Origin: a plasmid
Direction: 5' to 3' (one strand)
Sequence record: NZ_CP067423.1
Length of the DNA: 64,000 nucleotides
Every line of letters begins with the position of its first letter. The stretch's first letter is position 1. Made by a program: the position numbers and the translations under genes. Below, piece after piece: positions 45,037-47,635 of this stretch. The notes below the pieces were generated by a model. The model did not search any database, was not told where the DNA came from, and saw nothing but the letters and a program-made list of their open reading frames with translations.

Positions 45037-45282
45037 TCATCGCCGGGCATTGAACGCCGGCCGGGTGGCGAAGTAGCGGCAGGCTGGCGAGCCGGGATCG
45101 ATCGGGCTGCCCTTGCGACCGGTCAAGGTCTTGTACTTTCCGCAGACGAAACGGGACCCATCGGGCGACTGGTGGGCGCAGCCGGAACAGCGGGCGTCTA
45201 GCGGGCCGGTGCCGGGGAACGCCGCGTAGCAGCCCATCCGGGCCTTGCCACCGACGTTGAGCAGGGGAAGGTTGTTCTCCAT
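45037..45282 (-). CDS. small Cys-rich hypothetical protein (81 aa), last gene of the operon
   Basis: Cys spacing CSGC...C...C. Start codon 7 nt from the upstream gene's stop. Confidence 0.4.
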   Translation of the reverse strand: MENNLPLLNVGGKARMGCYAAFPGTGPLDARCSGCAHQSPDGSRFVCGKYKTLTGRKGSPIDPGSPACRYFATRPAFNARR

Positions 45283-45288
45283 GGCCGG

Positions 45289-45792
45289 TCACTCCGCCGC
45301 GATGGCACGGGACGCTGCGACGGCGCGCCGGAACGGGCGCAGGAGGTCACGAACCTCATGGCTCCAGGTCGGGTCACCGGTCCAGGGATCGATGCCGATC
45401 TCCCCAAGCATGGTCACATAGGCGCGCCAGTCCCGGCCCTTGATCTCGGGCTGGGCGTAGGGGCTGTGGGTGGCGATTAGAGCGGCGGCGTAGATCTGGT
45501 CGTCGCCTGCCATCTCCAGTTCGACATCGTTGGCCAGGGCCGCCGCCTCGGCAATCGACAGCGGGAATGTGGCTGTCGAACCGGGACGGCGGGGCCGGTA
45601 CTCGGAGCCGAAGTGATTGGCCGCCATTGTGGTGAAGCGCGAGAAGCCGAAGCCCAGCAGGCTGGTCGCCCGGGCCTGGAGGATGCGGCAGCGCTGGCCC
45701 GCCACCGGGCAGGTGATGAGCCAGCCCACGAGGCCGGTCCGGACGCAGTCGGCCAGCACGCAGCGCTGGGCGGAGGTCAGACGGTACGGCAT
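45289..45792 (-). CDS. hypothetical protein (167 aa)
   Basis: Member of a tightly packed co-directional gene array. No recognisable domain. Confidence 0.45.
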   Translation of the reverse strand: MPYRLTSAQRCVLADCVRTGLVGWLITCPVAGQRCRILQARATSLLGFGFSRFTTMAANHFGSEYRPRRPGSTATFPLSIAEAAALANDVELEMAGDDQIYAAALIATHSPYAQPEIKGRDWRAYVTMLGEIGIDPWTGDPTWSHEVRDLLRPFRRAVAASRAIAAE

Positions 45793-46007
45793 AGCGTCGT
45801 CCTCCCCTGGAACCCGTCATGACTGTCGAAATCGGCGGTGCCTGATTTCCAGGCGTCGAGCGTCTTGCACCGCCGGCAGACGCGGTGGCCGATGTGGGCG
45901 GAGGCGAAGGGCCTGCCGCAGCTCAGGCAGGTGCGGGTTCGCTGCCGGTGAGGCTCGCCGGGATCGGGGATGGCTGGATCGGAGGCGGGCTGATGAGTGG
46001 CGGCCAT
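45777..46007 (-). CDS. small zinc-ribbon-like hypothetical protein (76 aa)
   Basis: C-x2-C-x12-C-x2-C (CLSCGRPFASAHIGHRVCRRC). Confidence 0.45.
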   Translation of the reverse strand: MAATHQPASDPAIPDPGEPHRQRTRTCLSCGRPFASAHIGHRVCRRCKTLDAWKSGTADFDSHDGFQGRTTLCRTV

Positions 46008-46010
46008 GGC

Positions 46011-46391
46011 TCAGACCTCCCGGATGCACAGGATCACGGGGACGGGGATGGCGTGTCCGCTCTCCGGCATCGGCGCCGGCCGGACCTCGAAACCGGCGGC
46101 GCGCAGCTCGGCGGCGACCTCATCCCAGCGACCGCCGGGATCGGCCGGGACGTGGATGACGGTTCGTCGGGAAGCGGGGTCCAGCAGCCACGCGACGGTC
46201 GCGAGCACGGTTTCGCGCGAGCTCCGGCACAGGTTGGCGCAGTGGCCAGGGACGGTCAGCCGCCACGGAGTGTCCTGGTCGGTGGCCAGCTCGGTGGCGG
46301 TGCCGACACGCAGGCCGTCCGCCAGGACGCGGTAGGTGGTGCGGCCGGCGGCAGCGCCGGCCTCCACCAGTTCGATGCGCCGGGCCATCAC
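46011..46391 (-). CDS. hypothetical protein (126 aa)
   Basis: ATGA overlap with the upstream gene. No recognisable domain. Confidence 0.45.
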   Translation of the reverse strand: MMARRIELVEAGAAAGRTTYRVLADGLRVGTATELATDQDTPWRLTVPGHCANLCRSSRETVLATVAWLLDPASRRTVIHVPADPGGRWDEVAAELRAAGFEVRPAPMPESGHAIPVPVILCIREV

Positions 46392-46600
46392 TCGCCCTCC
46401 CCGATCAGCGCGCTGATGTCGTCGAGCGCCCCCATGCGGGCGTCCGCCACCCGGTCCCAGGCCAGGATGTCCGCGGCGGCGGCGATCTCCCAGCGGTTCT
46501 GCACACTGAGGCCGGTTTTCAGAGGTGCGATCCAGTCGGCCGTGATAGACAGGGCGGCATGGCCGGTGGTATTCGTCGTGATGTTCCTGAGGGTTCGCAC
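46388..46600 (-). CDS. small hypothetical protein (70 aa, GTG start)
   Basis: GGAG 9 nt upstream of GTG at 46600. It overlaps the next gene's ATG. Low confidence. Confidence 0.25.
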   Translation of the reverse strand: MRTLRNITTNTTGHAALSITADWIAPLKTGLSVQNRWEIAAAADILAWDRVADARMGALDDISALIGEGE

Positions 46601-46668
46601 TTGATGGAACTCCGGTGAGAGCCGGAGCCGGGAGGATGCTGACACATCCCCCGGCACCGGGCGGCTGG

Positions 46669-46875
46669 TCAGGGAACGAAGCGATTGATGATGCAGGTGC
46701 CGACGGGCGTTTCGCGCCACGAGCCGCCCAGCACGCCGGTCAGCATTTCGGTGACGAAACCTTCCAGTGTGTCGTAGCGGTAAGGATTGGCACCTGGATT
46801 GCGGTAGACCCATGCTCCGCGAACGGTGTAGACGGCGCTGCCGGTACGTCCGATGGTGATTTCACCTTGTGGCAT
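46669..46875 (-). CDS. small hypothetical protein (68 aa)
   Basis: ATG start. Compact gene 7 nt after the upstream stop. Confidence 0.4.
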   Translation of the reverse strand: MPQGEITIGRTGSAVYTVRGAWVYRNPGANPYRYDTLEGFVTEMLTGVLGGSWRETPVGTCIINRFVP

Positions 46876-46881
46876 GGCCGG

Positions 46882-47244
46882 TTACTCCGCAGCAGCGGGA
46901 GCAACGACGCGTCGCATCGCATCAAGAAACTTTTCGAGACTTTCAGGGAAGCCACCCGGCTCCTTCGAGCAGTTTTCAACGTCGAGGATCTTCAGCTTAC
47001 CTTGCGCATTCCACTCCAGATCTGTGGCGATCGAAATGGCTTCATCTTCATCGTCTGCGATCCCGCGAACCAATTCTTCGTATTCGTAATGACCGCTCGC
47101 CGCGTAGTAGACCGTCGAATCTGCGACCAGCTCGAACGTTTCTCCCAGGCGGCGCATTTTGAAGCTGACGAAGACGTTGTCTGTCCCGATGGTAGCGATA
47201 ATGATTCCAGGAAAGTGCTGGATTACGACATCGAGGCTGTTCAT
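46882..47244 (-). CDS. acidic hypothetical protein (120 aa), first gene of the operon; lower GC than the surroundings
   Basis: Divergent from the XRE regulator gene. Atypical composition for this replicon. Confidence 0.45.
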   Translation of the reverse strand: MNSLDVVIQHFPGIIIATIGTDNVFVSFKMRRLGETFELVADSTVYYAASGHYEYEELVRGIADDEDEAISIATDLEWNAQGKLKILDVENCSKEPGGFPESLEKFLDAMRRVVAPAAAE

Positions 47245-47371
47245 TGTTGCTCCTTCTTAGCGTTTAGCGGCTCCCCGGGCGCCGCTAATGCACATAGGTT
47301 AGCAACATACGGCTAGTTTTACAATGCTAGAGTTCAATGCCAAAAGGCTAGGAGGTAGCCATATACTGCTG

Positions 47372-47635
47372 ATGCAGAAAGTATCTAGCGAACAAATCAG
47401 AGATGCCCGCAATCTTCTCCGCATCGCCGGAGAAGAATTCTGCGCGATGGTTGGTATCGGTCGCCGCACTTTGCAGCGCATTGAATACGATCAAGACCTG
47501 ATGGAGCGTACCGCGTATGGAACCATTATGAAAATAGTTGAGACGCTCGAAGAGGCGGGTGTCGAATTCCTGACCGATGGGACGGTCAAGAAACGCAGCG
47601 GCGGCATTTCGAGTGGGGGAGGCTCCACGCCTTGA
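47372..47635 (+). CDS. XRE-family (Cro/CI-type) HTH transcriptional regulator
   Basis: HTH segment IRDARNLLRIAGEEFCAMVGIGRRTLQRIE. Transcribed divergently from the small-gene operon. Confidence 0.6.
   Translation: MQKVSSEQIRDARNLLRIAGEEFCAMVGIGRRTLQRIEYDQDLMERTAYGTIMKIVETLEEAGVEFLTDGTVKKRSGGISSGGGSTP

Follow-up and report, generated by a model that had tools for sequence, protein, structure and literature searches.

A truncated copy of a candidate early (establishment) operon of Skermanella mobile elements on plasmid NZ_CP067423.1

Seven small genes on the minus strand (g1-g7, 45037-47244), facing a divergent gene for an XRE-type regulator, were analysed within a 64,000-nucleotide stretch of the plasmid sequence NZ_CP067423.1, hereafter the window. 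We put the chances at about even that this array is most of a conserved, repressor-gated early ('establishment') operon belonging to a Skermanella-specific family of mobile elements and, as part of the same reading, that the carrier family comprises VirB-type conjugative plasmids together with related phage-like or phage-plasmid elements. An earlier, sequence-only reading of the window had described an operon of uncharacterised small proteins with a divergent HTH regulator, and this is supported as a genuine operon; it had also pointed towards phage defence, for which nothing in the analysis provides support. Positions of all features are collected in Table 1.

Table 1. Features of the array and its surroundings (positions in the window)
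Feature	Position	Strand	Remarks
z118, z156 paralogue	42036-42392	+	47% identical to z156
Later insertion, low-GC cassette	42550-44953		GC 0.50-0.56 at both edges
ThsB-like TIR gene	42891-43565		inside insertion; PADLOC ThsB 3.8e-122; TIR_2 1.4e-14
IS5-family IS	43561-44523		inside insertion; 21-nt inverted repeats; DUF4096, DDE_Tnp_1
g8 remnant, ~13 codons	44954-44993	-	nucleotide homology to L026, L012, L001 ends at 44954
g7	45037-45282	-	81 aa
g6	45289-45792	-	167 aa
g5	45777-46007	-	76 aa; zinc-ribbon protein
g4	46011-46391	-	126 aa
g3	46388-46600	-	70 aa from GTG (start codon inferred)
g2	46669-46875	-	68 aa
g1	46882-47244	-	120 aa; opens operon
Divergent control region	47245-47323		79 bp; GC 0.52; GCTAA direct repeats
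XRE/Cro-type HTH regulator	47324-47635	+	103 aa; HTH_3 E 0.004, below Pfam cut-off
z156, small Cys-containing protein	47715-48185	-	between XRE and iterons; no Pfam match
22-bp iterons	48260-48491		other side of array from TIR/IS; with RPA-family RepA

Conservation of the array in related replicons is clear: the order g1-g2-g3/4-g5-g6-g7, accompanied by an XRE or RHH gene that is divergent, is found again at about 30 non-redundant loci. Gene g5 lies immediately upstream of g6 in 23 of the 30 loci with enough flanking sequence, and locus L024 reproduces the seven-gene order exactly. At L018 g6 is distant (profile E 4e-25), yet g2, g3/4, g5, g7 and g6 are still found together. Natural fusions of g3 with g5 (L042) and of g3/4 with g6 (P0119) suggest that the array proteins act together. 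Several copies of the module with different regulators can occur in one strain, as on four replicons of S. rosea, which is expected under element-specific repressor control. The named loci are all from Skermanella; the array is a constant component of plasmids and phage-like elements in this soil genus, and the module belongs to the plasmid backbone rather than to variable cargo. A literature search on Skermanella plasmids or phages returned nothing relevant.

All seven co-directional minus-strand ORFs previously reported (68-167 aa) are present, and g1-g7 are real genes under selection. Their coding signal is good by both GC3 (0.81-0.88 in g4-g7, with g4 at 0.88, and 0.62-0.73 in g1-g3) and dN/dS, which is below 1 in every comparison with relatives and 0.12-0.46 in most; the exceptions are g5 against two relatives (0.83-0.85) and g3 against L024 (0.59). 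Junctions g1/g2 and g6/g7 are 6-nt gaps with an identical motif, GCGGAGTRACCGGCCATG, that puts a GGAG Shine-Dalgarno sequence inside the last codons of the upstream gene. The g4/g5 gap is 3 nt and the g2/g3 gap 68 nt; the ATGA overlaps reported earlier do not occur literally, the actual overlaps being GTGATG at g3/g4 and 16 nt at g5/g6. A longer version of g3 (141 aa from 46813) was rejected on two grounds: its overlap with g2 would be 145 nt, and homologues conserve only its C-terminal 70 aa.

Whilst the operon is genuine, its count of seven genes results from an accidental truncation, the ancestral operon having run on into two further genes. In L001, L012 and L026, g7 is followed by intact g8 (345-352 aa) and g9 (222-227 aa), and the g8 proteins of these intact relatives give weak matches to the PHROG annotation 'replication initiation O-like' (E 7.7e-4 and 1.5e-3). 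In the window, by sequence comparison, the ThsB-TIR/IS5 insertion removed both g8, the weakly O-like replication initiator, and g9, which would leave the 5' two-thirds of the conserved operon; without g8 and g9 the window copy may no longer work as a unit. Genes of Bradyrhizobium plasmids share 79-85% identity with the TIR gene, whose cassette is absent from relatives at the corresponding position. The boundaries of the array, a TIR gene and IS on one side and the oriV iterons on the other, are as described earlier, with the z156 gene as an additional element. The window replicon is heavily rearranged by insertion sequences, and the window copy of the module is a mosaic: g1-g2 lie near one module subtype (59-68% identity to L009) and g4-g7 near another (75-92% to L012). 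Rfam and tRNA scans of 42-50.5 kb returned nothing.

The XRE/Cro-type gene is divergent, as the sequence-only reading had it, and stands 79 bp from g1; its own HTH_3 match is weak, and positional counterparts in relatives match the family more clearly (E 7.6e-8). It is 55% identical to the gene at the same position in S. aerolata (L012), with a dN/dS of 0.34. The only inverted repeat in the control region is a short GCTAA-N10-TTAGC (47284-47303), a candidate operator; scans of the region for a sigma-70 consensus promoter and a terminator gave nothing useful. The low GC noted earlier for g1 and the intergenic region is real (0.53 and 0.52, with XRE also at 0.53, vs 0.64 for the window). The foreign origin of g1 proposed on that basis fits less well than modular recombination; a low-GC XRE/g1 end is common to the relatives. 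A type II toxin-antitoxin system with XRE as antitoxin was considered and discarded: XRE is divergent and lacks a partner gene in the same direction within the window, searches turned up no toxin family, and matches to MqsA/ParS-antitoxin-like families are weak (E 0.002-0.02, far below cut-off).

None of g1-g7 attains the curated cut-off of a Pfam or NCBIfam family, and the sole significant family match among them is that of g5 to PHROG 13335 (phrog_13335, unknown function; E 9e-8), in keeping with the earlier impression that the products resemble no nameable family. PDB sequence profiles of g1, g2, g5, g6 and g7 yielded noise only. Structure prediction, which had been suggested as a check, gave AlphaFold models for the all-alpha g6 (pLDDT 94), the signature gene of the module, and for g1 (pLDDT 84; a beta-meander plus helices), neither with a convincing PDB match. 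The g1 protein is acidic (pI 4.4), is the most divergent member of the operon and has no HTH. The best conserved protein of the module is g2, with 21 invariant columns in alignment A5, the pattern GRTG..Y..G.W..R..YDT..F..E..G..G.WR.T..G..RF, 54-68% identity to relatives and a dN/dS of 0.15-0.33; it has no Pfam or PDB match. An N-terminal motif of g3, RNITTNTTGHAALSI..W, is common to the L005 and L009 proteins, and g3 matches its counterpart in the metagenomic locus L024 at 84% identity along the same 68-69 residues. The C-terminal motif of g4, RWDEVAAELRAAGFEVRPAP, also occurs in short g3/4-like proteins of other loci and is found fused to g6 in P0119; g4 is 81-84% identical in L012, L024, L025 and L026 (dN/dS 0.28-0.32).

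Two products, g5 and g7, are small, basic, four-cysteine proteins, predicted from their sequences to be metal-binding and ribbon-like, with all Pfam ribbon families below threshold. In g5 the ribbon described earlier holds, with invariant cysteines, and its spacer is x13 rather than the x12 reported: the pattern is CxxC-x13-CxxC, and R25, C27, L28, C30, F34, C44 and C47 are invariant across 12 sequences. The second cysteine-rich product is g7, with C32, C35, C47 and C68 invariant in 5 sequences (alignment A3), an ...ACRYF motif, 84-91% identity in L001, L012 and L026 and a dN/dS of 0.13-0.34; its PDB profile found only weak HiPIP-like matches (E 0.17-0.6) covering the first CxxC alone. In their cysteines, two invariant CxxC knuckles 13 residues apart in g5 and four invariant cysteines in g7, the pair resemble generic zinc-ribbon/treble-clef proteins. 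They differ from the individual zinc-ribbon families in that g5 has sub-threshold matches scattered over unrelated ones (Pfam zf_Tbcl, DZR, the HypA Zn site), and its PDB profile is noise (HypA at E 0.24). A YacG-like gyrase inhibitor (NCBIfam E 0.061) was tried for g5 and rejected at an hhalign probability of 3%.

Where the module lies on its carriers bears on the earlier suggestion of a leading-region cassette. In a survey of leading-region establishment and anti-defence gene sets (PMC11541004), the leading region was taken as about 30 ORFs counted from oriT in the direction away from the relaxase; the relaxase itself usually belongs to the lagging region, and the T-strand encodes the leading-region families. 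The window array is ~37 kb from the sole relaxase-like gene (7687-8544). In L042 the order is RHH and MobA/VirD2-like relaxase (-), ~470 bp, a three-gene leader-like operon (+), XRE (-) and array (+). Identity between the three leader-like genes and their pSR-1 counterparts, which also lie upstream of the array, is 40-72%; pSR-1 and L030 share the order of leader-like operon, XRE and array. The array comes after the leader-like operon in L042/L041, pSR-1 and L030, and that operon adjoins a relaxase in L042 and L011. Pfam and NCBIfam gave no match for the three genes in pSR-1/L042, so the label IncP traK/L/M is used for them as an analogy only. Three complete plasmids, pSR-7, pSR-5 and pTT6-5, carry the array downstream of primase-helicase and ProQ/FinO genes, on the non-relaxase side of their T4CP/relaxase-like genes. 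It starts ~3.9 kb from the relaxase-proximal gap in L042/L041 and ~10 kb away in pSR-7, which would put it in the leading region provided that the weak relaxase calls hold (W285 at 29.0 bits vs a Pfam cut-off of 24.6; that of L042 at 23.3, just below); the layout of pSR-5, pTT6-5, pSR-1 and L030 agrees with this. The array points the same way as the genes that lead off from the relaxase side in L042, L041, L030, pSR-1, pSR-7, pSR-5 and pTT6-5. One distant g6 homologue runs into the start of a DUF7146/Toprim gene, with ArdC next; the window holds a 1109-aa DUF7146/Toprim gene (59-62% identical). The comparative context in relatives (non-relaxase side, co-orientation, ArdC neighbour) fits the leading-region claim, whilst in the transposase-rearranged L025, L031 and L011 the array or g6 is oriented differently with respect to those genes. 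A further idea, that pSR-7 lacks a relaxase and that its HNH gene and array form a new relaxosome, was dropped because a MobA/VirD2-like homologue adjoins its T4CP.

Among the closest known systems are conjugative leading regions such as ardA/psiB/ssb of F and ColIb and the ArdK-repressed ardC-ssb region of R388. Like such sets, the module in relatives appears, on weak relaxase calls, to lie on the non-relaxase side of a putative oriT and to be co-oriented with transfer. Genes for primase and ProQ/FinO are close by, as is ArdC in one distant relative; the module encodes small uncharacterised proteins, and its own repressor would permit transient expression on entry. Unlike them, its products fall outside the ArdA/B/C, PsiB, SSB, methyltransferase and Acr families, its composition is fixed rather than mix-and-match, and control is apparently exerted via a divergent dsDNA repressor gene.

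If the array is an establishment operon, XRE would bind the 79-bp control region and silence the operon in cells already carrying the element. On entry into a naive cell there would be no repressor, and so the translationally coupled g1-g7 would be expressed in a burst that, in intact copies, would run on into g8/g9 or an HNH endonuclease (intact type-A copies do run into the weak O-like replication initiator g8); as XRE accumulated, expression would cease. The g5, g7, g6 and g2 proteins and the g3/4 domain would act jointly, probably as a complex, and its target, whether incoming DNA, its replication/priming machinery or a threatening host factor, is a guess because no array protein has a recognisable biochemical function. 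More tentatively, and with the odds against it, g2, g3/4, g5, g6 and g7 may form an undescribed multi-subunit complex in which g1 serves as a variable adaptor; centred on a novel all-alpha fold (g6) and a pair of small 4-Cys metalloproteins, it would be deployed in the first minutes after entry to prime and protect incoming DNA with Toprim-type primases or to disable host defence. Such a complex would be establishment or anti-defence machinery of a new class, not a single-protein inhibitor. If the establishment reading is correct, the locus adds several protein families, none with a Pfam model and one with a confident fold unmatched among solved structures, to the largely uncharted early sets that decide plasmid and phage-plasmid survival on entry; its function is open to experiment thanks to the fixed order, the fusions and the association with Toprim primases and ArdC. 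Reach is limited to one soil genus and 34 representatives of the module among 1.84 billion proteins, with the window copy truncated.

Other explanations must be weighed against the establishment operon. That the array is an anti-defence island, in which the acidic g1, the Zn proteins and others inhibit restriction, CRISPR, Thoeris or other immunity on entry, is in our judgement rather unlikely. No known anti-defence domain was found in g1-g7, nor any anti-defence, SOS-inhibition, SSB or methyltransferase family in Pfam, NCBIfam or PHROG, and ArdC is a neighbour only beside the distant g6 homologue. With its stable order of genes and a dN/dS that is generally low, the array resembles co-adapted machinery more than an island shaped by an arms race. 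Somewhat less probable again is the immunity or early region of a temperate phage or phage-plasmid, with a CI/Cro-type switch and early genes leading to an O-like initiator, the window copy being what is left of a decayed prophage-like element that a plasmid has captured; this largely overlaps the establishment reading because both posit early genes under a repressor. As in the lambdoid early right operon and nin region (cI / cro-cII-O-P-nin), a divergent HTH repressor, XRE or RHH at the same position in relatives, faces packed, translationally coupled small genes, and intact type-A copies continue into the initiator weakly matching PHROG O-like families. Some relatives carry virion genes (terminase in L002; portal and MuF in L004, L005 and L009; a scaffold-like gene) and, as cos phages do, an HNH endonuclease, here immediately after the array; IMG/VR includes two carrier contigs, and g5 too matches a PHROG family. 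Against this, tblastn of g6 found no match in 50,697 sequenced phage genomes, BFVD gave no fold match, g1 is not Cro-like, and apart from g8 nothing resembles CII, O, P or Nin. Most complete carriers are T4SS plasmids: T4SS genes are present in pSR-5, pSR-7 and pTT6-5, and none of the three has an annotated head gene; a tape measure protein is annotated in pTT6-5 only. No phage structural genes lie near the array in the window, and none were seen in its annotated parts.

A phage-defence (abortive-infection-type) system, or a toxin/kil locus restrained by XRE in the manner of IncP kil-kor, appears very improbable. In its favour, genes that do harm when uncontrolled typically have a divergent repressor, a ThsB-like TIR gene adjoins the array, and the array sits beside oriV/repA as the kle/klc operons of RK2/IncP sit beside oriV. 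The IncP-1 kil-kor loci (kleA-F, klcA-B and klaA-C, under KorA/B/C) share with the module small-protein operons of unknown function by oriV/trfA, tight repression and a place in the conserved backbone; the regulators differ, being XRE or RHH in the module. However, no PADLOC-DB v2 model is matched by any of g1-g7, XRE has a chance-level RmrA match (E 0.044), and g1-g7 showed no domain of the nuclease, NTPase, TIR, Sir2, protease, kinase or membrane-effector type. The ThsB match belongs to the TIR gene, and the operon was truncated by the TIR cassette, which is a low-GC insertion in its own right, so that the 'defence island' interpretation of the window is to be corrected: its neighbouring TIR gene is an unrelated, later and damaging arrival, and the module itself is plasmid backbone.

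The z156 and z118 genes, one on either side of the array in the window, have homologues flanking the array in L012, L007, L033, L037, L041 and L042.

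The seven co-directional minus-strand genes (g1-g7) run consecutively across 45037-47244 with a divergent XRE regulator gene facing them, as the sequence-only reading had described (see table). The small ORFs carry a coding signal: g4-g7 have a GC3 of 0.81-0.88 and g1-g3 one of 0.62-0.73 (window GC 64%), and dN/dS lies between 0.12 and 0.46 in most pairwise comparisons of g1, g2, g4-g7 and XRE with homologues, with pairwise values of up to 0.83-0.85 for g5 against two relatives and 0.59 for g3 against the metagenomic locus L024. A longer reading of g3 was rejected, as it overlaps g2 and only the part from the GTG at 46600 is conserved (84% identity in L024). 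The ATGA overlaps claimed earlier are not literally present at any array junction: 6-nt gaps with a common motif, GCGGAGTRACCGGCCATG, separate g1 from g2 and g6 from g7, g3 and g4 share a GTGATG overlap, g4 and g5 lie 3 nt apart, and g5 and g6 overlap by 16 nt. Homologues of g6 and g1 end in an almost invariant 'AAE' whose codons hold the GGAG Shine-Dalgarno sequence of the next gene, which indicates translational coupling.

Features of the array and its surroundings in the window
Feature	Position	Strand	Remarks
T4SS/coupling-protein gene set	1282-8544		
MobA/VirD2-like relaxase gene	7687-8544		285 aa; in first T4SS set
YhgA-like transposase	9687-11735		adjoins relaxase gene
IS6-like element, copy	26477-27445		969 bp; 272-aa transposase
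DUF7146/Toprim_3 gene	27626-30955		1109 aa
IS6-like element, copy	35158-36126		direct repeat, 100% identical
T4SS/coupling-protein gene set	36156-41510		
z118	42036-42392	+	47% identical to z156
ThsB-like TIR gene	42891 onward		within 42891-44523 with IS; PADLOC ThsB 3.8e-122; 3' end interrupted by IS
IS5-family element	43561-44523		21-nt inverted repeats 43561-43581 and 44503-44523
g7	45037-45282	-	81 aa
g6	45289-45792	-	167 aa
g5	45777-46007	-	76 aa
g4	46011-46391	-	126 aa
g3	46388-46600	-	about 70 aa, from GTG at 46600
g2	46669-46875	-	68 aa
g1	46882-47244	-	120 aa
XRE gene	47324-47635		divergent from array; 103 aa; 79 bp from g1; weak HTH_3 match (E 0.004)
z156	47715-48185	-	adjoins XRE; paralogue of z118
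22-bp iteron-like repeats	48260-48491		TCGTCGTTTG..TCACC; downstream of repA
RPA-family repA	48644-49750		iteron-like repeats downstream
Inverted iteron copies	49689-49804		overlap repA start and lie just upstream
IS110-family fragment	about 49875-50893		

When all proteins were mapped onto the roughly 50 loci fetched, a same-strand order recurred in which a divergent XRE or RHH gene is followed by g1, g2, a g3/4-like gene, g5, g6, a variable slot and g7; of the 30 non-redundant loci with enough flank, 23 have g5 immediately before g6. Gene order is conserved in related replicons, recurring across Skermanella loci, and L024 matches the window gene for gene across all seven, in the same order (identities of 81% for g3, 82% for both g4 and g5, 97% for g6 and 88% for g7). 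Two subtypes can be told apart. Type A (g4-g7 of the window, plasmid pSR-1/L001, S. aerolata L012 and L026) has two further genes after g7, namely g8 (345-352 aa) and g9 (222-227 aa). In type B (pSR-5, pSR-7 and L002-L009) a small lipoprotein gene often separates g6 from g7, and an HNH_3 endonuclease gene comes last. The array in the window is a recombinant of the two: its g1-g2 most resemble type B (59-68% to L009) and its g4-g7 type A (75-92% to L012). This explains the GC step of the sequence-only reading: GC is indeed low at the regulatory end, at 0.52-0.54 across XRE, the control region and g1. The type-B lipoprotein (L002 6795-7154, L007 10528-10881, L008 10513-10851) has a signal sequence ending ...LSAC/LAGC and a weak 17kDa_Anti_2 match; entry exclusion is our guess at its role. 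On contig80 of S. aerolata (L012 4547-8932), the closest genomic relative, g6 is split by an insertion of ~3.9 kb, so that this copy of the module is also damaged.

The protein families of the array are undescribed, in keeping with the earlier failure to name any: no product of g1-g7 had a match at curated cut-off in Pfam, NCBIfam or PADLOC, g5 giving sub-threshold zinc-ribbon matches and a match to PHROG 13335, annotated as of unknown function. Profile searches of PDB sequences with g1, g2, g5, g6 and g7 returned noise only, and the predicted fold of g6 is confident and without a solved relative. Homologue alignments show four invariant cysteines each in g5 (C27, C30, C44, C47) and g7 (C32, C35, C47, C68), which supports the proposal of two Zn-ribbon-like proteins at the level of sequence, the g5 spacing being CxxC-x13-CxxC rather than x12 as first given. 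A suspected relationship of g5 to YacG was rejected. In L018, despite a g6 that is only distantly related (profile E 4e-25), the g2, g3/4, g5, g7 and g6 genes are still adjacent, with g7 preceding g6, and natural fusions join a g3-like protein to the g5 zinc ribbon (L042 5909-6292) and the g3/4 motif (RW..V..AL...G....PAP) to g6 (protein P0119, L015 189-833). Together with translational coupling, this adjacency and these fusions suggest that the small genes are not independent but make up a multi-protein unit; their products probably work together. In L015 a VirB11-like ATPase gene follows the fusion directly.

The module is restricted to one genus. Among 5.8 billion proteins the g6 family forms 96 clusters at 90% identity, all named members being Skermanella, and only 34 turned up when 1.84 billion representatives were searched exhaustively by profile. 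Of the GTDB species representatives, S. aerolata and S. stibiiresistens alone have g6, and of 72,556 plasmids seven do, all of Skermanella, including four replicons of a single S. rosea strain. A family of 35-54 kb Skermanella elements (L002-L009, pSR-5, pSR-7, pTT6-5) shares primase-helicase, ProQ/FinO, array, HNH, calcium-binding protein and ParA genes; to these a member adds either T4SS genes of the VirB type or phage genes (portal, MuF and terminase).

In relatives, the position of the module is that of the predicted leading part of their plasmids, which would enter early. The lagging region is the normal site of the relaxase gene, and the transferred strand codes for leading-region families (PMC11541004). 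In L042, an RHH gene and a gene for a 292-aa MobA/VirD2-like relaxase (Pfam Relaxase E 8.6e-5, just below cut-off) share one strand and are separated by a gap of ~470 bp from three oppositely oriented genes that are 40-72% identical to the three upstream of the pSR-1 array; a 258-aa gene, XRE and g1-g7 follow. The same junction is found in L030 and pSR-1. Three complete plasmids, pSR-7, pSR-5 and pTT6-5, have the array beyond the T4CP/relaxase-like genes, on the side that faces away from them, co-oriented with the genes departing from that point, with primase-helicase (DUF927, DUF3987) and ProQ/FinO genes upstream. Independent support for this placement comes from L014, where the stop of a distant g6 homologue overlaps the start of a DUF7146/Toprim gene, followed by ArdC (ArdcN 1.3e-38). 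The window and L002/L003 also code for a large DUF7146/Toprim protein, 59-62% identical, whose gene in L002/L003 precedes the array by 2-3 kb. Other carriers hold phage genes (terminase in L002; portal or MuF in L004, L005 and L009), two of these contigs being present in IMG/VR, and type-A g8 weakly matches PHROG O-like replication initiators. The module is thus common to conjugative and phage-like elements, always near replication or entry functions of such elements. Exceptions are L025, L031 and L011, which are rearranged and adjoin transposases.

The window copy itself is truncated: nucleotide homology to L026, L012 and L001 ends at 44954, 13 codons into g8, where a low-GC block begins that extends to about 42550. 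This block contains the TIR gene and IS that had been named as one boundary of the array; the TIR gene shares 79-85% identity with TIR genes on Bradyrhizobium plasmids, and no ThsA partner for this orphan was seen in the annotated parts of the window. On pSR-5 of S. rosea a TIR gene lies beside IS256 copies. Past the block is z118, a paralogue of the small gene z156; the two, inverted to each other, bracket the TIR block, array and XRE, and share the motif KCGR.GQYHT...YGADM.MPELRH in a family matching none in Pfam. At least six other loci have members of this family flanking the array. As z118 lies beyond the block, and a convergent z-family gene just past g7 in L042, the block is not an operon partner but was inserted into the operon's 3' part. 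On the other side, z156 is followed by the iterons given as the second boundary, then RepA, a protein also encoded ~1 kb upstream of g1 in L043.

From this comparative anatomy we infer regulation, timing, complex formation and target, and give roughly an even chance to the best-supported reading, in which the array is an early or establishment operon, gated by a repressor, of a mobile-element family specific to Skermanella. Entry of the element into a cell without the XRE repressor would set off a burst of expression, and the products of the operon may form a small complex that includes two subunits binding metal and a new all-alpha protein, acting on incoming DNA, its priming or replication machinery, or a host factor. 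The narrower reading as an anti-defence operon draws on position and on the acidic, fast-evolving g1, and seems unlikely to us. A phage immunity or early region, which overlaps with the establishment reading, is distinctly improbable; phage genes accompany the module in several carriers, and g6 was not found in sequenced phages. A defence or kil locus is very improbable and unsupported: the PADLOC search for the suggested phage-defence island left g1-g7 without a qualifying match, and the neighbouring TIR gene belongs to the inserted block. It is possible, if doubtful, that the array encodes a multi-subunit machine for establishment or anti-defence that is truly new. Tightly packed early operons of small proteins with a divergent repressor on a mobile element are a familiar kind of locus, and the array has these features too.

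Rearrangement in the window is extensive: it has two T4SS sets, IS6-like direct repeats and several other transposases, and its sole relaxase-like gene lies ~37 kb from the array. The IS6-like copies bracket the DUF7146/Toprim_3 gene and a CHASE4-GGDEF-EAL gene, and the segment that they delimit (26477-36126) looks like a pseudo-compound transposon.
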